From: Candidatus Humimicrobiaceae bacterium
GTDB lineage: Bacteria > Patescibacteriota > Minisyncoccia > Minisyncoccales > DG-74-1
Direction: 5' to 3'
Length of the DNA stretch: 64,000 bases
NCBI GenBank assembly: GCA_035530555.1
Contig: DATKUR010000006.1
Location: 31,673 to 95,672, forward strand
The notes beneath the pieces were generated by a model, which saw only the letters and a program-made list of their open reading frames with translations, was not told the DNA's origin and ran no database searches. Of this stretch, positions 3,373 to 32,418 are shown piece by piece. How positions within the stretch are numbered: the stretch's first letter is position 1; every line of letters begins with the position of its first letter. Both the position numbers and the translations under genes were made by a program.

Positions 3373-4071
3373 TTAGCCTTTTAGTTTCTTTCTTATATCC
3401 TGTGCTATTTCGGCAGCCACATCTTTTCCGCCAAGACCAAAGGCAATAGCCAACATAGCAACTATTCCTACAAAAGCAATCTTAATCAATTCGAAAACCC
3501 AATCTGCCCAGTCAAACTTCAATTGCTGGAAAACAGCCAAAATGGCAAAAATCCAAATAGCCCATTTAATAATCGCCCCTACCAGATGACCATAACCTAC
3601 TTTAATGCTCTCCACGGCTGCTCTAATCACTTTTTCTACAATATCAGCTATAATAACGGCTACTACAAAAATAAGGGCAGCTACAATAACATTCGGAAGA
3701 TAACCCAAAATAGCTCCCAGTAAGTCCTTGAATGCCCCAAACGGTTGTCCTAAAGCTCCAACAGCTGCGTAAAGAAAAGTAATCACCAAAATCCATTTAA
3801 CAATAGCGCCGATAAAATCTGAGGGACTAATCTTCATCTCAGCTTTTTCTAAAGCCGTTTTCCACCCAGTCCTTTCAAAGAATTGATTTAATTTTATTCT
3901 GGTTAAGATCTCAGCCACTAATTTTCCAACGATAACCGCAAAAATCCAACCAATAAGGAAGATAATAATTGCGGCAACTAAGCCGGGAACGAAATTCAAA
4001 AACCCATCCCAGAGTTTCAATAAAGCCATAGTTGTTGTTTCGGCCCAGTTTTCTATCCAGTTTTCAAACAT
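3373..4071 (-). CDS. multi-pass membrane protein with repeated TM-helix units (conserved-TM-helix / mechanosensitive-channel-related type)
   Basis: 232-aa ORF made of several similar hydrophobic helices (e.g. LVAAIIIFLIGWIFAVIVGKLVAEIL and IVAALIFVVAVIIADIVEKVIRA). The family was assigned from memory only. Confidence 0.45.
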   Translation of the reverse strand: MFENWIENWAETTTMALLKLWDGFLNFVPGLVAAIIIFLIGWIFAVIVGKLVAEILTRIKLNQFFERTGWKTALEKAEMKISPSDFIGAIVKWILVITFLYAAVGALGQPFGAFKDLLGAILGYLPNVIVAALIFVVAVIIADIVEKVIRAAVESIKVGYGHLVGAIIKWAIWIFAILAVFQQLKFDWADWVFELIKIAFVGIVAMLAIAFGLGGKDVAAEIAQDIRKKLKG

Positions 4072-4165
4072 AGTAGTTTTATATCTTTAAAATTTTAATT
4101 TTCGACCTTTGTAAAGATTAGGATATTATATAAAAGCCAAAGAGATCTGTCTAGTGGAAAACTTT

Positions 4166-4239
4166 TGGTGGACCTAGGCAGAATCGAACTGCCGCTACTA
4201 CATTGCAAATGTAGTGTTCTACCGTTAAACTATAGGCCC
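4166..4239 (-). tRNA. tRNA-Ala (UGC), CCA encoded
   Basis: The reverse complement is GGGCCTATAGTTTAACGGTAGAACACTACATTTGCAATGTAGTAGCGGCAGTTCGATTCTGCCTAGGTCCACCA. It folds as a cloverleaf with a G3:U70 pair and the anticodon loop TTTGCAA. Confidence 0.9.
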
Positions 4240-4250
4240 AGAAAAATTTA

Positions 4251-4367
4251 GGCGGGTGAACAAATGAGGCGCCCCAGCAGTAGAACGCTTCGCGTTCACT
4301 ACGGGGCAGTCCCGTACCGTGCTTTGCTCTGATACTGGGACGTTCTAGCCAACTGAACTACAGGCCC
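4251..4367 (-). other. tRNA-like 5' half followed by a long hairpin; no matching 3' acceptor strand (degenerate tRNA or unknown ncRNA)
   Basis: The reverse complement starts GGGCCTG TA GTTC AGTTGGCTA GAAC, a good acceptor 5' strand plus D-arm. It continues TCCCAGTATCAGAGCAAAGCACGGTACGGGACTG, then the hairpin CCCCGTAGTGAACGC-GAA-GCGTTCTACTGCTGGGG, then CGCCTCATTTGTTCACCCGCC. I find no T-arm and no CAGGCCC strand. Confidence 0.3.
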
Positions 4368-4370
4368 GTT

Positions 4371-4445
4371 TGGTGGGCGCGGAAGGAGTTGAACCTTCCA
4401 CCTCTTCTTTATCAGAGAAGCGTTCTACCGCTGAACTACGCGCCC
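4371..4445 (-). tRNA. tRNA-Ile (GAU), CCA encoded
   Basis: The reverse complement is GGGCGCGTAGTTCAGCGGTAGAACGCTTCTCTGATAAAGAAGAGGTGGAAGGTTCAACTCCTTCCGCGCCCACCA, with anticodon loop CTGATAA. Confidence 0.9.
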
Positions 4446-4996
4446 AAGACAAAAAATTCTTTTTTTACCGGGAGACTGCTTATCCTTTTTTTAAAAATAA
4501 CATTCAGTCCTATCTTATCGAAGATGTTCTCCCATTCTTCTTCTGACTTAAAAGAGGCTTTATTGTAATCTCCGATGAGCTTGGTGAAAGAAATTCCGTG
4601 AATCTTACAGAATAAACTTGAAAAAAAATCATCCAACAAGTCTTCGTAAATAATGATTTTACCCTTGGCCGTTCTTTTGGCTTCTTTCAAAAGAACAACG
4701 GGGTCTTCGCTATGATGTAAAACGTAATTAATTAAAACCGTATCAAAGGAATCATCTGGAAAAAGAAGGTGAAAACCATCATAAATTTGAAAAGGAAGCG
4801 AAGAAACCCGGTAATCTTTAATATCTACTCCCAAGACTTCTGCTCGAAAAAAATCTTGAAAGGTCTTCCCAACTATACCGCAACCGCAACCCAGATCGAG
4901 AACCTTCGAACCCTTTTTAATAAAATCTTGGCAATCCAAACACATTTTCTTTGCCGCCAATTTATAAATTGGGTAGAAAGCCCGGTAATGATTCAT
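4436..4996 (-). CDS. class I SAM-dependent methyltransferase
   Basis: 186-aa ORF with motif I VLDLGCGCGIVG. Its last codons overlap the 5' end of tRNA-Ile by about 10 nt. Confidence 0.7.
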   Translation of the reverse strand: MNHYRAFYPIYKLAAKKMCLDCQDFIKKGSKVLDLGCGCGIVGKTFQDFFRAEVLGVDIKDYRVSSLPFQIYDGFHLLFPDDSFDTVLINYVLHHSEDPVVLLKEAKRTAKGKIIIYEDLLDDFFSSLFCKIHGISFTKLIGDYNKASFKSEEEWENIFDKIGLNVIFKKRISSLPVKKEFFVLGA

Positions 4997-5469
4997 TTTC
5001 TAACTTTTGTAAAATTACCGATTATCAAGTCAGGTATCATTTTTCTAAGAGCAGCGCCTTTAAGTTTAATTGAAAAATTATAATCACCGCTATTGAGAAT
5101 GATTTTGGGCAGATTAATCAAGGATTTATCAACAAATGTCGGCACTCTCCATAAATTTCCAAAAGGCGGAATAGCGCCAATTTTTACCCCTTTTAGATTT
5201 TTCTTAATCCAGGCCTCCTTAATAAAACTAATCTTTTTCGTTTTAGCTGTTTTTCCTAACTTTAGAATGTCTAAATTTTTGTTTGCTGGAATCATAACCA
5301 AAGCTACCCTTTTGTCTATTCTCGTCACTAATGTTTTCCCAATCATCTTCTCTGAGACCTTTAAAGTGGCTGCTTTGTCAAAGGCAGTATAAACCGTCCG
5401 GTGCCCAACCACTTCGTATTTTGTCTTTACCTTTTCTAAAAAATTGGAAATTTTTTTGGGAATTTGCAT
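4993..5469 (-). CDS. YbaK/ProX-type aminoacyl-tRNA editing (deacylase) domain protein
   Basis: 158-aa ORF of the right size, with GAIPPFG and SGDYNFSIKL-type motifs typical of YbaK-like domains (recognised from memory). Confidence 0.55.
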   Translation of the reverse strand: MQIPKKISNFLEKVKTKYEVVGHRTVYTAFDKAATLKVSEKMIGKTLVTRIDKRVALVMIPANKNLDILKLGKTAKTKKISFIKEAWIKKNLKGVKIGAIPPFGNLWRVPTFVDKSLINLPKIILNSGDYNFSIKLKGAALRKMIPDLIIGNFTKVRK

Positions 5470-27998: not shown

Positions 27999-28039
27999 TG
28001 TGGCTAGGGGTATTGGACGATGTTCGGACCTGTTTTTGT

Positions 28040-28075
28040 TCGTAGAGACAAAAAACCGCTCTCTAAGAAAGCGGT
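28040..28075 (-). terminator. intrinsic terminator after the small membrane peptide gene
   Basis: The minus-sense sequence is ACCGCTTTCTTAGAGAGCGGT followed by TTTTTTGT. Confidence 0.6.
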
Positions 28076-28160
28076 GGGAAATCGTAATTTGATAATTGGG
28101 ACTCCTCAAGCTACTAACTTTCGCCCGAGGAGTCCCCGTGACCCGATTAGGCAAGGCAAT

Positions 28161-28343
28161 CTAACTAACGGATGGGATGAAGACGAATGAGAAAATAGTA
28201 AGAACTACCCCAAATACTATTAGAATGATTGCAGAGGTAGAGCCTTCAAGTAAAATAGTATGTTTCTTATATATCCGGACCCCCATCGCTATGGAGAAGA
28301 TTGCCACTCCCAGAAAAAGAAGATACGCTAGTACTGTAACCAT
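28161..28343 (-). CDS. 60-aa two-TM hydrophobic peptide
   Basis: MVTVLAYLLFLGVAIFSIAMGVRIYKKHTILLEGSTSAIILIVFGVVLTIFSFVFIPSVS. The gene is preceded by a consensus promoter and a strong SD. Confidence 0.6.
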   Translation of the reverse strand: MVTVLAYLLFLGVAIFSIAMGVRIYKKHTILLEGSTSAIILIVFGVVLTIFSFVFIPSVS

Positions 28344-28349
28344 CTCGGT

Positions 28350-28395
28350 TCACCTCCTGCCACACATTATACCATACAAAATATCATTTTGTCAA
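28350..28395 (-). promoter_or_regulatory. consensus promoter (TTGACA-18 nt-TATAAT) plus strong SD (AGGAGGTGA) for the 60-aa peptide gene
   Basis: The minus-sense sequence reads TTGACAaaatgatattttgtatggTATAATgtgtggcAGGAGGTGAaccgagATG. Confidence 0.7.
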
Positions 28396-28404
28396 TGCGA
28401 ACAT

Positions 28405-28634
28405 CTACCAAAAAACCGCCCTTTTAGCGATTAATTTGATGAGTTTATCTTTCGAATAAAGTTCGATGTCCTAGACGGGTACCGGGATTTTTTCTCGAAC
28501 TATTTGTCAAAATATGAGGCGGATCGGTCTCTCGAACCGCGCTCAAGGTAGCTGCGGGGACTCTATTCGAACTATAGCTTCATTTTATGTTCGAAATCCT
28601 GTATTTTTCAGTTCGAATCTCGGAGGGGTCTCTA
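28405..28634 (-). repeat. island repeat copy 1 (segments A+B+C)
   Basis: Aligns with 29385-29627 (copy 2) and, for segments A and B, with 32251-32355 (copy 3, which abuts tRNA-Gln). Contains gctgcgggg, the last 8 nt of tRNA-Gln plus its trailer. Confidence 0.85.
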
Positions 28635-29375
28635 TATTTTAATTATTTCTTTCTGGACCGAACTAGTTATAATCAATCCATAATCTCTAGTTATGTAGCA
28701 ATTTATCTCGCTTCTAATTCCAAAGTTATTCTTTAAATAAAGACCAGGCTCGATGGTAAACAAAATATCTTTCTTTAATCCAGCATTACTTTTTTTGCCA
28801 AAACGAAAATATTTTCCATGGCATTCGTTGATTCCCAAACTATGTCCTAAACCATGAAGAAAGTTATTTTCTAAACCATACTTATCGAAATAATCCCTAA
28901 CCGTCTTATCAATTAATTTAGTTTTGGGAAGCTTTTTTGTCTTTAAATTCTGACGAAGTAATTTCAGAGCAGTTTCTCTTCCTTGAATAACTCTTTTAAA
29001 AATCTTTTTTATATCTTGTGGGATGTTTTTACCACAATAACCCATCCAGGTAATATCTGCGAAAGGAGCATCTTTTTCATTAATTCTTGCCCAAATATCA
29101 ATCAATACCAAATCGTTCTTTTTTATAATCTTAGAACTATTTTTCTGAGGAAAGTAATGGACTAAAGATGTATTTTTGTCTGCAGCTACAATTGGCAATG
29201 AATATCTTTTTTCGGCAACAAGGTTCTCTTTCTTAAATTCTGATAATATAAACTGACTGACCTTATATTCGGAGACCTTACCAAGATTATTTTTGATAAA
29301 ACCAAATGCTCTATTTTTAACCTGATCCAATCTTTCAGCTGCAATCTTATGTTGTTTAATTTGGTCTTTTGTCAT
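28632..29375 (-). CDS. M24-family metallopeptidase (Xaa-Pro/methionine aminopeptidase fold)
   Basis: 247-aa ORF with HGLGHSLG and EPGLY-type metal-ligand motifs. Confidence 0.7.
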   Translation of the reverse strand: MTKDQIKQHKIAAERLDQVKNRAFGFIKNNLGKVSEYKVSQFILSEFKKENLVAEKRYSLPIVAADKNTSLVHYFPQKNSSKIIKKNDLVLIDIWARINEKDAPFADITWMGYCGKNIPQDIKKIFKRVIQGRETALKLLRQNLKTKKLPKTKLIDKTVRDYFDKYGLENNFLHGLGHSLGINECHGKYFRFGKKSNAGLKKDILFTIEPGLYLKNNFGIRSEINCYITRDYGLIITSSVQKEIIKI

Positions 29376-29384
29376 AGTTTTACC

Positions 29385-29627
29385 CTACCAAAAAAGCGCC
29401 ATTTTGGCGATTAGTTGGTGAGGTTTTCTCCCGAATAAAGTTCGGCATCCTAGATGGGTATGGGTTTAGGACGTCCTGGACCCGTCAAGAAATTAGCTTC
29501 AAAATAGGCCTCTCGGTCGGCCTCGATACTGCGCTGACTGGTGCTGCCGCGCTGCGACTCGAACTATAGCTTCATTTTATGTTCGAAATCCTGTATTTTT
29601 CAGTTCGAATCCCAGGCGGGTGTTCTA
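29385..29627 (-). repeat. island repeat copy 2 (A, divergent B, C)
   Basis: The 52 nt cgaactatagcttcattttatgttcgaaatcctgtatttttcagttcgaatc are identical to copy 1. Segment A is similar by eye, and the middle segment is divergent and GC-rich. Confidence 0.85.
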
Positions 29628-29633
29628 ATTTTG

Positions 29634-30164
29634 TTATTTTAAAATATACTTTTCTAGCAACTCAAAGTCAATTTTATCAAAATGATTGTTTCCTTCAACT
29701 ATGACCAATTCTGCATTAAGATAATTTGCCAAGTCTTTGCCGTGTTGAAGGGGCACTGCCGGATCTTCCGTTTGGTTAAAAATTATGAATTTCTCCGAAG
29801 ATTCTTTTATTTTCTCCCAACTAAAATCTCCTTCCAGAAAATTTTCTATCATTTGAAATTCCGAACCCAGCCTCCTTATTGGTGTAGCCATTAATATACA
29901 TTTCCCTACTTTATTTTTTGCTTCCTCTAAGTATCCAAGAACAGTTGTTCCGCCTAAGCTGTGGCCAATAAGAATTGAGTTTGCATCTGGATTAAAATCT
30001 TCTATAACTCTCACCCATTCTTCTTTTTGGGGATGTAAAGAATTGGGCATGTCCGGCACGGTTACCTCGTACCCCATTTTTTCTAATCTTTCTTTTTCTT
30101 CTAAAAACCAGTGCTCTTTTGAATTACTTTCAACCCCGTGGATAATTAAAACTCTTTTTACCAT
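29634..30164 (-). CDS. small alpha/beta-fold serine hydrolase (YdeN/RBBP9-like)
   Basis: 176-aa ORF with the GHSLGG nucleophile elbow. Confidence 0.65.
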   Translation of the reverse strand: MVKRVLIIHGVESNSKEHWFLEEKERLEKMGYEVTVPDMPNSLHPQKEEWVRVIEDFNPDANSILIGHSLGGTTVLGYLEEAKNKVGKCILMATPIRRLGSEFQMIENFLEGDFSWEKIKESSEKFIIFNQTEDPAVPLQHGKDLANYLNAELVIVEGNNHFDKIDFELLEKYILK

Positions 30165-30171
30165 ATTTAAG

Positions 30172-30432
30172 TTAAATTTGATTCTTATGAATAAAATTTC
30201 CTAAAACCTGGTTAATTTCTTCAATTAAGTGCGGATGCCAACGATAATCGTGAGCTGAATTAATTCTGCAAAGCTCTTTAGGCTCTGCGGCTGCTTCATA
30301 AGCCTCCATTACTACTTCCGGTTTTACTGTCTTGTCATGAATACCTAATATAAATAATTTTGGTTTAGCACAATCTTTAAGGTCTTCAAGGATATTATAA
30401 CGATCGGAATCCTCAAAAAAAGCAGAAGACAA
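30172..30432 (-). pseudogene. 3' fragment of an alpha/beta hydrolase gene (5' part missing)
   Basis: The 86-aa ORF covers only the C-terminal region (KPKLFILGIHDKTV...SAHDY). The nucleophile region is absent. Confidence 0.5.
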
Positions 30433-30581
30433 GCTTAAGGCTGAATTTTTTAAGAGTCTTTATAAGGCTTTCCAAAGAAATAAAGATGCTTGATAACAAA
30501 AAGTACATTCTCTTACAAGAATCGGTTGACGAAATTGGAAGAATGCTCGGTGGCTGGTTGCGTTCTATTAAATCAAGATAA
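30381..30581 (+). pseudogene. avd: C-terminal half of a DGR accessory variability determinant (Avd, four-helix-bundle family); 5' half missing
   Basis: The open frame has no start before M at 30486 and reads ...SLRLNFLRVFIRLSKEIKMLDNKKYILLQESVDEIGRMLGGWLRSIKSR*. From memory, the tail resembles the C-terminus of Bordetella phage BPP-1 Avd (...AEVGRILGSWIARVNRK). Confidence 0.55.
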
Positions 30582-30584
30582 TCA

Positions 30585-30613
30585 CAAAGGGCATCCATTA
30601 GGGATGCCCTTTG
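30585..30613. other. perfect 12-bp GC-rich hairpin between the avd remnant and TR
   Basis: caaagggcatcc-attag-ggatgccctttg. It lies 16 nt downstream of TR in minus sense and 4 nt downstream of the avd stop in plus sense. Confidence 0.8.
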
Positions 30614-30628
30614 TAGCTTGCGGAGAGA

Positions 30629-30758
30629 CTTCGGGAGAAACCCAGACACCGAGCCATAGTTGTCGTTGGCATTGTCGAACCAGTTCGTGTCGAACTTGAC
30701 CTTGCCGTCGTTGAAGTTGAAGTAGGGCGCGTTCGAGAAATCGCCATCAGCATCAGGT
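30629..30758 (-). repeat. DGR template repeat (TR)
   Basis: Gap-free 130-bp alignment to 31168-31297. All 17 differences are at TR sense-strand adenines. The TR is noncoding: an in-frame TAA lies immediately 5' of the homology. Confidence 0.9.
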
Positions 30759-31065
30759 TAATTGCCCCCGCTCGTCCATATCACCAGACCGTGAAGTTTA
30801 CTGCCCTAAGGCTTATATCTTTTTGGTCTTGAATTTTATTCGGCAGCATCCCGCCAGGGGCGGAAACCTGCACTAAGCAGAGGCAAGCAGTATCTCCTCA
30901 GCACAACACGCTCTTAGAAACCGTAGTCGCTAAGACTCTGGTTGTTTTTCTCCTAAAGAGAGAGTTCGGCGACAGCAATCCGTGAACTGCTGTACATTAG
31001 CCTAAGCTCATTTATAGTATAACAAAAGAAAGTTTAATTTTAAATACATTATTAAAAAAGAAAAT

Positions 31066-31097
31066 AGGGGTTATCCACTGAGATGTGAATAACCCCT
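31066..31097. terminator. bidirectional intrinsic terminator downstream of the DGR target gene
   Basis: aggggttat-ccactgagatgtga-ataacccct, flanked by an A-run on one side and TTTTTT on the other. Confidence 0.65.
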
Positions 31098-31164
31098 TTT
31101 TTGTGGCGGACGCAAGGACTCAAAATATCAAGAAGTCCAAGTATCCAAGTCTTCAAGGTTCTAC

Positions 31165-32031
31165 TTACTGCGGGAGAAACCCAGACACCGAGCCATAGAC
31201 GTCGTGGGCACTGCCGAACCAGCTCGCGCCGAACTCGACCTCGCCGTCGTAGAAGTAGAAGCAGGGCGCGTCCGAGAAACCGCCAACAGCATCAGGTGCG
31301 TACTCGTCGCCAGCACAGTCGATCCAGAGATCGTCATAATGCTGGAGTCGCTCGGGATGGGTCAGTAATATGCACCCGATCTCGAATGCGCCGAGTCCAA
31401 ACTCATTGGCCGTAAAGACCTCGCGAGCTCGACGGACACTGCGGCCCCTGTGACGGAAACCGAACTGAGCAGCCACGACCAGAATGTCGTAGCCCTTCTG
31501 CTGTTCAGCCAGCGTTTCGAGCTTCTTTACTGTACGCTCGTGCTGTCGGAGATATTGCACTCCGAGCTTGCCTTCGCGCCAGTTGTAGAACTTGCCCTTG
31601 CGCTGCTTCTTAATCAGCTCCAGCACTTTCTCCACTGCTTCATTGTAGGTCTTGGCGACCGACTGCCACTTCGGGATGGCGAACCATCCTTCAGCATTCG
31701 GCGGAAGCGGTTGCTCGACGAGCTTTTCATCGGCGAAGCCGATGCCAGGAAGGAGCTGACGCAGAATGTTGGTCTGCTCTGTGATGCCTTTGGGCTTGTA
31801 GCCCGACAGGTATCCGTATCTGGACTCCACTTCCTCGTCCGCAAACTGGTTGCTCACAGAGAGCTCCCTGATGCCAGCAATGATGCGAGCTTGAAACTCG
31901 TCACCATTCTCGATGAGCTTCTGAAGCCCATCCTTGTCGAGACCGACTTCGGCTAATGCCTTGTCGGCGGCATCCTCGACAAACCTCTTGTACTGCTTTG
32001 TCTGTCCTGACGTGATCGATTTTGTCGTCAT
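31165..32031 (-). CDS. DGR variable (target) protein, 288 aa, family unknown
   Basis: Long ORF that is GC-rich relative to its surroundings. Its last 43 codons form the VR. A strong SD GGAGGTGA lies 6 nt upstream of the ATG. Confidence 0.85.
   Translation of the reverse strand: MTTKSITSGQTKQYKRFVEDAADKALAEVGLDKDGLQKLIENGDEFQARIIAGIRELSVSNQFADEEVESRYGYLSGYKPKGITEQTNILRQLLPGIGFADEKLVEQPLPPNAEGWFAIPKWQSVAKTYNEAVEKVLELIKKQRKGKFYNWREGKLGVQYLRQHERTVKKLETLAEQQKGYDILVVAAQFGFRHRGRSVRRAREVFTANEFGLGAFEIGCILLTHPERLQHYDDLWIDCAGDEYAPDAVGGFSDAPCFYFYDGEVEFGASWFGSAHDVYGSVSGFLPQ
31168..31297 (-). repeat. DGR variable repeat (VR) at the 3' end of the target gene
   Basis: See the TR entry. The VR encodes PDAVGGFSDAPCFYFYDGEVEFGASWFGSAHDVYGSVSGFLPQ*, whereas the TR would encode PDADGDFSNAPYFNFNDGKVKFDTNWFDNANDNYGSVSGFLPK. 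Confidence 0.9.
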
Positions 32032-32093
32032 CGTCTATCACCTCCATATAGTTTTTTTACCCGAATCGCTCGGGCTTGACGGCTTGTCTCCCA

Positions 32094-32148
32094 ATGAGAC
32101 GAGCATTTTAGAAACCAGCTAATCTGACATCTAAAACGCTCGTCTCAT
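32094..32148 (-). promoter_or_regulatory. 19-bp hairpin in the 5' UTR of the DGR target gene
   Basis: The arms are atgagacgagcattttaga (32094-32112) and tctaaaacgctcgtctcat (32130-32148), with one G-U position and a 17-nt loop. Confidence 0.7.
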
Positions 32149-32189
32149 AGTTCTGAACCTATATTTCAAAGAACTTATATTACACTACA

Positions 32190-32217
32190 ATTATAGCAAA
32201 CTGTCAAAAAAAGTCAA
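32190..32217 (-). promoter_or_regulatory. promoter of the DGR target gene (TTGACT-16 nt-TATAAT)
   Basis: The minus-sense sequence reads TTGACTttttttgacagtttgcTATAAT. Confidence 0.55.
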
Positions 32218-32250
32218 GGTTATACAGATGGAAATAAAATCGTTTTATTC

Positions 32251-32355
32251 ATAAAAGTTCGATGTCCTAGCGGGGTACCGGAATAGTTTTCTCGAACTTT
32301 TTCAAAAATATGAGGCGGATCGGTCTCTCGAACCGCGCTCAAGGTAGCTGCGGGG
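32251..32355 (-). repeat. island repeat copy 3 (A+B), the native trailer of tRNA-Gln
   Basis: ataaaagttcgatgtcctagcggggtaccgg...tatgaggcggatcggtctctcgaaccgcgctcaaggtagctgcgggg aligns with copy 1. Confidence 0.85.
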
Positions 32356-32418
32356 CCTGGACTCGAACCAGGATACCATCTTCCAGAGAGATGTGTCCTA
32401 CCATTAGACGACCCCGCA
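32348..32418 (-). tRNA. tRNA-Gln (CUG)
   Basis: The reverse complement is TGCGGGGTCGTCTAATGGTAGGACACATCTCTCTGGAAGATGGTATCCTGGTTCGAGTCCAGGCCCCGCAG. It has a U1:A72 pair and the anticodon loop CTCTGGA. Confidence 0.85.

Follow-up and report, generated by a model that had tools for sequence, protein, structure and literature searches.

The composite SCC islands at rlmH/orfX are built by the CcrAB large serine recombinases, with insertion at a conserved gene's 3' end that regenerates a usable site; tandem arrays arise in this way, and recombinase-less pseudo-elements between direct repeats are among their members. In the CIME/ICE accretion of Streptococcus, att-flanked segments lacking a recombinase lie in tandem with an autonomous element and could be mobilized by it. 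The attC repeats of Vibrio were, like the repeats described here, noticed first as intergenic repeats. In the tycheposon-type islands of Prochlorococcus, a tRNA gene is the integration target, consecutive insertions lie next to one another with a partial tRNA copy between them, older elements are displaced inward by newer ones, the islands are strewn with degenerate remnants and partial tRNAs, and a minority of elements carry a large serine recombinase (Hackl et al., bioRxiv 10.1101/2020.12.28.424599).

The 64-kb stretch of Parcubacteria DNA analyzed here (the window) contains a small tandem array of gene modules adjoining a tRNA-Gln gene, with three repeats as its joints (Table 1). The interval between tRNA-Gln and ftsZ is probably (roughly 60%) a hypervariable array whose modules were assembled through site-specific recombination at the 3' end of the tRNA. 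It resembles tycheposon islands in tRNA integration, side-by-side insertions, inward displacement, remnants and the presence of a large serine recombinase (LSR) in some elements. However, its modules, mostly single genes and 0.4-3 kb in size, lack integrase and replication genes, its 'partial tRNA' is not copied from the local tRNA but is a conserved mimic (the type-ii and A-type arms described below), the junctions add a conserved unit of approximately 200 nt with terminators and a promoter, and the host belongs to the Parcubacteria (CPR). Insertion at a 3' end, site regeneration and a tandem array with recombinase-less elements are shared with SCC, whereas the target is a tRNA instead of rlmH, tRNA-like arms with a long unit stand as repeats in place of a 15-18-bp site, module size is far smaller, and the LSR family is defined by a C-terminus reading into the tRNA. 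Like CIME/ICE, the array has att-bounded recombinase-less segments at a shared site, but the streptococcal system relies on a tyrosine integrase and a target other than a tRNA, its elements are large, and it lacks a conserved promoter/terminator unit.

Table 1. Features of the array between tRNA-Gln and ftsZ (positions in the window).
Feature	Position	Strand	Remarks
tRNA-Gln(CUG)	32347-32418	-	Proximal array anchor; ARAGORN; Rfam tRNA, 58 bits
Copy 3, truncated T-type unit	32254-32346	-	Ends ...CTAGGACATCGAACTTT; nhmmer, profile positions 2-124
Module 3 promoter and long-hairpin leader of GC-rich gene	32092-32217	-	TTGACT-16-TATAAT (11/12)
GC-rich DGR target gene, 288 aa	31165-32031	-	Module 3 cargo; VR 31167-31297
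DGR template repeat (TR)	30628-30758	-	
avd remnant, last 31 codons	30487-30582	+	Inverted relative to TR/VR
Alpha/beta hydrolase fragment	30172-30432	-	Module 3 cargo; Pfam
Ser_hydrolase gene	29634-30164	-	Module 3 cargo; Pfam
A-type arm of copy 2	29543-29632	-	Ends in decayed tRNA-Gln 3' end GTTCGAGTCGCAGCGCGGCAGC
Copy 2, complete M-type unit	29368-29542	-	nhmmer
M24 peptidase gene	28632-29375	-	Module 2 cargo; 31% GC; Pfam PF00557, 2e-32
A-type arm of copy 1	28551-28640	-	Ends GTTCGAATAGAGTCCCCGCAGC; 18/23 matches to tRNA 3' end
Copy 1, complete T-type unit	28388-28550	-	nhmmer; terminator 28414-28432
Module 1	28055-28395	-	Promoter 28366-28395 (12/12); terminator 28055-28075
60-aa membrane-peptide ORF	28161-28343	-	Module 1
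Fourth arm, type-ii	28003-28036	-	AAAAACAGGTCCGAACATCGTCCAATACCCCTAGC; distal array end, abuts ftsZ promoter

The repeat is a conserved unit whose usual position is 3' of tRNA-Gln in Nealsonbacteria-like Parcubacteria. An nhmmer profile of 37 related units matches the window at 28388-28568 (copy 1, E = 3e-36), 29368-29560 (copy 2, 1e-50) and 32254-32365 (copy 3, 2e-23), and finds no further copy in the 64 kb; all three copies share one orientation on the minus strand, as an earlier note on this DNA had described. That note took copy 3 for the native trailer of tRNA-Gln. Copy 3 does adjoin the intact tRNA-Gln(CUG) gene that occupies this end of the island, but it is truncated and lacks the B terminator, whereas copies 1 and 2 are complete. 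The unit exists as two alleles, T, represented by copies 1 and 3, and M, represented by copy 2. The GC-rich middle that had been read as divergent in copy 2 belongs to the same trailer, in its M allele; copy 2 is 87.5% identical to the stretch from T-loop to trailer of tRNA-Gln in a sister species (L056). Units contain two terminator-like hairpins, in agreement with the suggested termination function, and the hairpins with U-runs noted earlier were located at 28432->28414 and 29409->29397. Most units also carry an extended -10 box ahead of the next gene (TGnTAnnnT downstream of the U-run in 24/36 units) and end near the next start codon; in copy 2 the terminator at 29397-29409 is followed by TGGTAGGGT immediately upstream of the M24 start codon.

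Each junction has as its left half either the real tRNA 3' end or an arm of 32-90 nt that imitates it and ends in CAGC, and as its right half the start of a unit. At copies 1 and 2 the unit is preceded by such a mimic (terminating ...CAGC), and the 3' 23-mer of the tRNA, at up to 6 mismatches, is found at these two copies only, both in tRNA orientation. Measured from the junction, the TCGA motif occupies -20..-17 in the tRNA and likewise in both A-type arms (copies 1 and 2); its place in the arm on contig L014 is -25..-22; the A-type spacing is thus that of the tRNA and the L014 arm is 5 bp longer. Rutherford and colleagues reportedly found in 2013 that attP carries its outer half-site motif about 5 bp farther from the centre than attB does. 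The earlier partition by three copies identified real joints but missed a fourth junction element, the type-ii arm at the ftsZ end, which is kept in sister species L055; the arms at copies 1 and 2 together with this fourth arm therefore divide the island into three modules. In 433 kb the core of the type-ii arm is present 55 times where chance would give 2.6, clustered and invariably on a single strand within each locus; 39 of the 55 are not followed by a unit.

The three modules hold a diversity-generating retroelement (DGR) remnant with hydrolases, an M24 peptidase and a 60-aa peptide. Pfam confirms the M24 gene, the Ser_hydrolase gene and the hydrolase fragment inferred earlier, and the consensus promoter described upstream of the 60-aa ORF matches at 12/12 positions. 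The proposed DGR has a TR/VR pair with 17/17 differences at TR adenines but appears to be a remnant: its avd is reduced to the last 31 codons (positions 81-106 of 107 in the Pfam bAvd profile, E = 1.3e-4, under the curated cutoff), and no reverse transcriptase was matched among the island ORFs and 10 further ORFs. The promoter and leader of the GC-rich gene are 78% conserved in L056, where they precede another gene.

No site-specific recombinase gene lies beside the tRNA-proximal junction in the island of the window, in line with the earlier statement that an integrase is absent; a recombinase is nevertheless present in an alternative allele of the same species. In sample ERZ27256847 an LSR element sits exactly at the tRNA/unit junction. 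Contig L004 follows the window as far as ...CCCCGCAGC and exactly there passes into the 3' end, in antisense, of an LSR gene; L014, from the same sample, begins with 98 nt ending ...GTTCGAAAATCGTCCACGACTCCCAGC and thereafter equals the window from 32350 onward. The far end of the element is a type-ii arm; this link between LSR and arm comes from the single allele L004/L014, two contigs that are not physically joined. With the slash marking the junction, the sites are attB GGCCCCGCAGC/TACCTTGAG, attL ...GCAGC/CAATCACCC and attR CGACTCCCAGC/TACCTTGAG, which have CAGC alone in common at the crossover. The presence/absence polymorphism thus falls precisely at ...CAGC/TACC, and the first ~20 nt of copy 3 form the right half-site of the insertion. 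The tRNA/unit junction is a live insertion point.

The tail peptide encoded in L004 aligns with LSR C-termini. Full-length homologues of 510 and 517 aa contain Resolvase, Recombinase and Zn_ribbon_recom domains, and the 3' ends of full-length homologues overlap tRNA-Gln(CUG) in two Saccharibacteria MAGs, at whose LSR loci no units or arms were found. A site-specific recombinase gene also occupies the tRNA-proximal junction in L022/L023, and only an LSR remnant adjoins tRNA-Gln in L008. An LSR is the candidate enzyme for moving the recombinase-less modules. The LSR element has no unit on its recombinase side; therefore, canonical attP x attB chemistry alone does not explain the unit-carrying modules. 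Scans of viral contigs yielded no match to a free attP, and neither a circular nor an excised form came to light.

In metagenomes, a scan located the unit at 43 loci, directly 3' of a real tRNA-Gln (CUG or UUG) in eight; among these 43 loci an LSR gene occurs in L082 only, and it is a distant one. Several loci carry same-orientation arrays of 2-3 units with unrelated cargo. For example, L063 reads tRNA-Gln/unit, NUDIX gene, A-type arm/unit, sigma factor, the arm being that of copy 2, and L092 reads tRNA-Gln/unit, 61-aa gene, type-ii arm/unit. Between species at 85-88% FtsX identity, the cargo of the interval from FtsX-tRNA-Gln to ftsZ is wholly different, so that relatives carry other genes at the locus and not, as the earlier note had considered, the same gene order without repeats. 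At finer scale, a segment of 88 nt with an end precisely at an arm is present in one and absent from the other of L055 and L054, whose identity is 99.9%; the divergence point between L053 and L055 does not coincide with the CAGC end of an arm but lies just upstream of the arm. Both readings offered in the earlier note, serial site-specific insertion at a tRNA locus and a cassette array with a recombination or termination element, are supported.

The units and arms might instead be stationary, REP-like regulatory elements of intergenic regions (terminators, promoters or protein-binding sites) in an island that varies by unrelated processes. The B part of the unit (terminator and -10 box) does occur alone at many intergenic sites, the arms are numerous, most arrays have no recombinase nearby, and the core motif holds CCGAAC-TTT-GTTCGG, a 6-3-6 palindrome and possible operator. 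Nevertheless, we regard this explanation as unlikely: the window has zero copies beyond the island, so that the dispersal of a generic REP/MITE raised earlier is not seen within 64 kb, and elsewhere the arms form same-strand arrays; moreover, mosaic junctions are sharp at CAGC, insertions fall exactly at junctions, arm and unit together flank unrelated genes, and the cargo has completely turned over between sister species.

It is less probable still that tRNA-Gln and its trailer underwent ordinary segmental duplication, the A blocks being decayed tRNA bodies and the module boundaries incidental. MAFFT sets the tRNA body against an A block of similar length, and the T-loop GTTCGA and acceptor end are shared; copies 1 and 3 have the tRNA 3' CCCCGCAGC and the trailer in common (94% identity over 64 nt ungapped, ~90% over 117 nt gapped), the tRNA tail in copy 1 being 9 nt long, not the 8 first counted. 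Yet the 90-94% identity of the trailer gives way to background level over only a few bases at the tRNA 3' end, a drop too sharp to be caused by uniform decay. The A block also shows 100% identity along 53 nt in copies 1 and 2 (28567-28619 and 29559-29611; previously given as 52 nt) and is nearly unchanged after the NUDIX gene of a different organism. The trailer allele of copy 2 differs from that of copies 1 and 3. With the covariance models of Rfam 15 the tRNA alone passes, and copies 1 and 2 give no match to any of them, the tRNA model included, even at E <= 10.

A classical integron array, with attC sites and an IntI tyrosine recombinase, would likewise show insertion beside a fixed primary site and short, co-oriented, mostly single-gene modules in tandem, with diverse cargo and a repeat at each boundary. 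This reading is largely refuted and very improbable, given that no tyrosine recombinase (Phage_integrase) was matched among the island ORFs and 10 other ORFs, the arms are non-palindromic (the inverted partner needed for an attC hairpin accompanies 3 of the 55), RNAalifold finds no conserved stem (a consensus fold of 7 pairs with zero compensatory changes), the modules have promoters of their own, and the candidate enzyme is a serine rather than a tyrosine recombinase. Least credible, and unsupported when tested, is the idea that earlier insertions left recombinase-gene 3' ends behind as attL scars, now decayed into the T, M and B blocks: GTTTTCTCGAAC in T resembles by eye the C-terminal VFSN codons of LSRs (GTATTTTCGAAC) and L008 shows that such remnants exist beside tRNA-Gln, but a profile of five LSR 3' ends matches no copy in nhmmer even at E <= 100, tblastn of the tail peptide likewise finds nothing, and the unit is a conserved trailer directly after real tRNA-Gln genes in many genomes.

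Under the preferred reading, in which the array arose through site-specific recombination at the 3' end of the tRNA, a module would consist of a unit (whole or its 5' part), then cargo, then an arm. Insertion of a module at the tRNA/unit junction would recreate that junction and displace the older arm/unit junction inward, and repeated rounds would yield the three direct copies of the window. Recombinase-less modules may be moved, now or formerly, in trans by an LSR of the L004-type family; the unit would travel together with the module, and its promoter would drive the cargo. The same joint sequences, which bound unrelated genes in dozens of other metagenome contigs, point to an undescribed integron-like cassette system at tRNA-Gln.

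More tentatively, and with the odds somewhat against it, Nealsonbacteria-like Parcubacteria may possess a form of cassette capture that parallels the integron in function and is unrelated to it in mechanism. The primary site would be the 3' end of tRNA-Gln, sometimes of other tRNAs, and short tRNA-mimic arms terminating in CAGC would form the cassette ends. The travelling unit would insulate each cassette through its terminator and express it from the extended -10 promoter, and an LSR whose own gene reads into the tRNA would act in trans. Because the incoming cassette would bring a unit, each insertion would restore the tRNA/unit site; therefore, arrays would grow from the tRNA end and, if this scheme is true, could also be reshuffled.

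The island under study lies on the minus strand, where ftsE and ftsX are followed by tRNA-Gln(CUG), about 4.3 kb of variable sequence and ftsZ. The window, part of a Parcubacteria (CPR) genome, contains an rRNA operon, an RNase P RNA and six tRNAs; among FtsX homologues, those of 'Parcubacteria bacterium DG_74_1' and Ca. Nealsonbacteria indicate the nearest relatives. The flanks have a GC content of about 0.40; the M24 gene is poorer in GC (0.31), and one further gene is richer (see the table). The three direct copies of the tRNA trailer described in an earlier note are borne out by exact searches, by a repeat finder and by aligning the three with one another, and the hairpins and 12/12 promoter seen there are reproduced by terminator and promoter scans. 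Copies 1 and 2 each begin a few bases from the stop codon of the preceding gene, and both open with the A block, one type of a class of tRNA 3'-end mimics of 32-90 nt ending in CAGC (arms). A second type, type-ii, occurs once in the window, with the terminator of the peptide gene on one side and the ftsZ promoter on the other; this arm-promoter joint is also present in DG_74_1. Thus, the island is bounded by the tRNA and this terminal arm, with three modules inside.

Positions of features in the window and in comparison contigs (an arrow indicates tRNA sense)
Feature	Position	Description
tRNA-Gln(CUG)	32418->32347	
Copy 3	32346->32254	trailer alone, after the tRNA
Hairpin leader	32092-32217; L056:10225-10430	near-perfect long hairpin ATGAGACGAGCGTTTTAGA...TCTAAAATGCTCGTCTCAT
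Gene with high GC	31165-32031	GC 0.55-0.60
DGR, module 3	30487-32031	
VR	31167-31297	GC-rich hairpin after it at 31066-31097
TR	30628-30758	GC-rich hairpin after it at 30583-30615
Copy 2	29632->29368	A block (53 nt identical to copy 1), GTTCGAGTCGCAGCGCGGCAGC, GC-richer middle, same kind of terminator
Copy 1	28640->28388	A block, GTTCGAATAGAGTCCCCGCAGC, trailer 90-94% identical to that of the tRNA, hairpin and U-run
Type-ii arm	28036->28003	
ftsZ	27963->26515	
Protein genes in rRNA operon	3373-5469	between 16S and 23S
Interrupted tRNA	L007:8230-8830	
Tandem repeats	L022:10290-10560	
Arm joined to core	L065:4785; L072:1124	
Variable locus of DG_74_1	L053/L054/L055, 10000-18900	

The tRNA is the sole Rfam family matched. 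Reading the A block as a tRNA or as a pseudogene of one was rejected: it is not recognised by ARAGORN or by the Rfam tRNA model, and its T-stem is out of register by hand. TTCGAA is rare in the whole window (16 sites versus 39.7 expected from dinucleotide shuffles), and 6 of the 16 sites fall within copies 1 and 2; this depletion may reflect a host restriction system, a foreign origin of the arms, or both. The protein genes within the rRNA operon, which adjoin tRNA-Ile and tRNA-Ala, encode a methyltransferase, a YbaK/tRNA_edit domain protein and a mechanosensitive-channel-like protein. Module 3 holds hydrolases and a diversity-generating retroelement (DGR) whose variable repeat (VR) differs from its template repeat (TR) at 17 positions, all at TR adenines. 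Only the last 31 codons of avd are present, on the opposite strand, and neither the island nor 10 other ORFs yielded a reverse transcriptase; this DGR looks like a remnant.

The middle of copy 2, which had been described as divergent, is an allele (M) of the trailer whose other allele (T) sits in copies 1 and 3, because in a sister species (contig L056, FtsX 88% identical) the tRNA-Gln from T-loop to 3' end and its trailer match copy 2 with 87.5% identity over 128 nt. The L056 trailer breaks off after CTAGGACATCGAACTTT, as does copy 3, and each then runs into a shared promoter and long-hairpin leader (78% identical) before unrelated GC-rich genes. This conserved promoter and leader may serve DGR-type targets as a module for expression or regulation. 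The GC-rich gene that follows them in L056 was considered as a homologue of the DGR target, and no homology is detectable.

Same-species contigs, found by exact-protein look-ups at 99.9-100% identity in several samples, mostly show the arrangement of the window; sample ERZ27256847 is the exception. Contig ends within copy 1 (L002, L003, L010, L011, L015 and L016) were considered as strain variants, but they fall at the repeat blocks, where assembly breaks are the simpler explanation. Contig L004 of ERZ27256847 (231 kb) equals the window as far as the tRNA's final base, where it departs (...CCCCGCAGC/CAATCACCCGTTTTTGACC, the slash marking the junction); on the opposite strand, its 229-nt tail codes for a protein C-terminus that runs antisense into the tRNA. 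Homologues of the tail peptide are short ORFs adjoining tRNAs, one of which (in L007) has Resolvase and Recombinase ORFs before it. A genome scan identified full-length homologues (510 and 517 aa) that combine the domains Resolvase, Recombinase and Zn_ribbon_recom and whose genes overlap tRNA-Gln(CUG) with their 3' ends in two Saccharibacteria MAGs; in other phyla, more distant members of this large serine recombinase (LSR) family adjoin tRNA-His, -Ala, -Glu and -Asn. Contig L014, also from ERZ27256847, begins with 98 unmatched bases ending in ...ACTGTTCGAAAATCGTCCACGACTCCCAGC and then equals the window from 32350 through ftsZ. In the simplest reading of these sequences, L004 and L014 would carry the two ends of a single element that entered where the tRNA meets copy 3, the window being the empty site; since the contigs are not physically joined, we infer the single insertion from its two ends. 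The proposed sites are attB GGCCCCGCAGC/TACCTTGAG, attL ...GCAGC/CAATCACCC and attR CGACTCCCAGC/TACCTTGAG. On its tRNA-proximal side, the L004 element has the end of the recombinase gene, without a trailer unit. Relative to its place in the tRNA, the TCGA motif of the L014 arm is 5 bp farther from the junction, a wider spacing that is typical of serine-integrase attP relative to attB; the A arms have the tRNA-like spacing. Scans of viral contigs recovered neither a free attP pattern nor LSR relatives, and the flanks of the Saccharibacteria elements (L022 and L023) contain no tRNA-like or arm-like sequence as attR.

Genes of this family (L022-L029, L008) terminate within the 3' end of a convergent tRNA gene of varying identity in Saccharibacteria, Omnitrophota, a Rickettsia endosymbiont, Alphaproteobacteria and Chlamydiae; L008 retains only the last ~125 codons of the recombinase, beside tRNA-Gln. 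In L007, the tRNA abutting the recombinase gene, for which ARAGORN made no call, is apparently split by ~500 nt that encode an HNH-type ORF; this may be a homing endonuclease within an intron. Upstream of tRNA-Gln, and thus at its 5' side, L022 has another kind of tRNA-linked repeat: two ~127-nt copies in tandem, each opening with nucleotides 1-18 of the tRNA (ATTGCGGGATCGTCTAATGG).

A 25-nt degenerate trailer motif matched 43 metagenome contigs, and alignment of these loci defines a unit of ~200 nt. At its 5' end is a junction whose last bases are (C/G)CAGC or GGAGC. Next comes a hairpin region, of which there are at least three sequence types, all with (C/T)ATTTTG after them; the near-invariant core GTACCCNNCTAGGACAYCGAACTTTRTTCGG follows, then the terminator AATCGCC....GGCGGTTTTTT and finally a TGnTAnnnT box (24 of 36) with the start codon of the next ORF shortly after. 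Left of the junction, eight loci have a genuine tRNA-Gln (CUG or UUG) and one has tRNA-Asn; others have an A-type arm resembling those of the window (L063, L077, L091), a T-arm-like CTCGGTTCTAGACCGAGGATGCCAGC or, the commonest of all, a type-ii arm (AAACAGGTTCTAACATCGTCC-N7-9-CAGC). The type-ii arm agrees with the end of the L014 element at 27 of 32 positions in a hand alignment. The 433 kb of fetched loci contain its core 55 times (2.6 expected), up to seven times per locus and invariably on a single strand within a locus; the majority of these arms have no unit after them. A 24-mer of the A block has no match in viral contigs or in the metagenome collection, which evidently lacks the JGI samples holding the window's species, and a loose three-TTCGAA pattern retrieved only unrelated iteron-like repeats from viral contigs.

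A conserved RNA fold of the unit is not supported, as RNAalifold on 36 units gives 7 pairs at -4 kcal/mol and no compensatory change. A 6-3-6 palindrome lies within the core motif, which is conserved at the sequence level; thus, a role in RNA and one as a putative DNA-binding site are equally likely. In L065 and L072, a type-ii arm is joined straight to the GTACCC...CTAGGAC core without the hairpin region, and the M-type unit has an arm-like stretch (GGGTCTAGGACGTCCTAAACCC) immediately before that core. These sequences hint at a possible origin of the unit from older copies of arms.

Cargo turnover is directly visible: the contents of the ftsX-tRNA-Gln to ftsZ locus are wholly replaced between species with 85-88% FtsX identity. 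In DG_74_1 (FtsX 85% identical), the tRNA is followed by a plain terminator and then by about ten other small genes ahead of ftsZ; a 60-aa ORF there was compared with the 60-aa peptide of the window and is not homologous. Module content differs at the orthologous locus among three samples of this sister species (L053-L055), with at least 2.8 kb of additional modules before ftsZ in L053. Across the 43 contigs, cargo includes NUDIX, M24 and hydrolase genes, small membrane peptides, a sigma factor and a DGR target. L063 reads dnaX, tRNA-Gln(UUG)/M unit, NUDIX gene, A arm/T unit, sigma factor; L092 has tRNA-Gln/unit, a 61-aa gene and type-ii arm/unit; L058 has the tRNA and the 5' part of a unit, five ORFs and type-ii arm/unit, without a recombinase; and L075 has three full units within 7 kb. 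Two DG_74_1 samples (99.9% identical) differ by the presence or absence of an 88-nt segment that is located after ...CCCATAAGG and terminates in an arm, ...CCCCCAGT/AGTCTTGTGC. These arrangements fit a module made of a unit (whole or 5' part), cargo and an arm, entering at the arm/unit or tRNA/unit junction. One misfit is the divergence between L053 and L055, which starts ~25 nt upstream of an arm.

The anatomy of the junction, the recombinase-bearing insertion at it and the recurrence of arms and units around unrelated cargo are direct observations, and they support the serial-insertion or cassette interpretation proposed in the earlier note. A stationary regulatory or REP element fits in part, as it accounts for free-standing terminator-promoter copies, but insertions are precise at the junctions and, within the window, copies are restricted to the island. 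Plain duplication of the tRNA and its trailer does not fit, because identity falls abruptly from 94% to none at the tRNA end and the A block is conserved across organisms. A classical integron does not fit on either defining feature: no tyrosine recombinase was found among the island ORFs or 10 other ORFs, and only 3 of 55 arms have the inverted partner of an attC architecture. That the trailer blocks (T, M and B) are decayed recombinase 3' ends was tested and failed, with zero matches on any copy at E <= 100 for an nhmmer profile of five LSR 3' ends and none by tblastn with the tail peptide.

Under serial insertion, an LSR of the L004-element family would move the recombinase-less modules. 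The unit would travel with the module, so that each insertion would regenerate a tRNA/unit site and arrays would extend from the tRNA end; the -10 box of the unit would drive the cargo. Among the 43 unit-bearing loci there is one LSR gene, a distant one, and the catalytic link between recombinase and modules is circumstantial.

SCC composite islands and CIME/ICE accretion are analogous systems. The closest description to this array is that of the tRNA islands of Prochlorococcus, in which tycheposons are inserted side by side with partial tRNAs between them and remnants left, a few using serine recombinases (bioRxiv 10.1101/2020.12.28.424599). Compared with these systems, the modules here are very small, mostly single-gene and recombinase-less, with conserved tRNA-mimic arms, a long unit carrying a terminator and promoter, and a CPR host. 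No account of an arm/unit array in Parcubacteria was found in the literature, and the probability that this is a fully new cassette system is put at about one third.

CPR/Patescibacteria have tiny genomes, and little is known of their gene gain and exchange. What appeared as a local repeat is a recurrent, searchable architecture that indicates a testable pair of recombinase and site. The arm and unit motifs offer a simple handle for locating variable islands in Parcubacteria MAGs and explain assembly breaks at these islands. If a serine recombinase does move the modules by acting on tRNA-mimic arms, this would represent a second, independent route to cassette arrays and would supply one LSR family with a compact group of natural landing-pad and donor sites.
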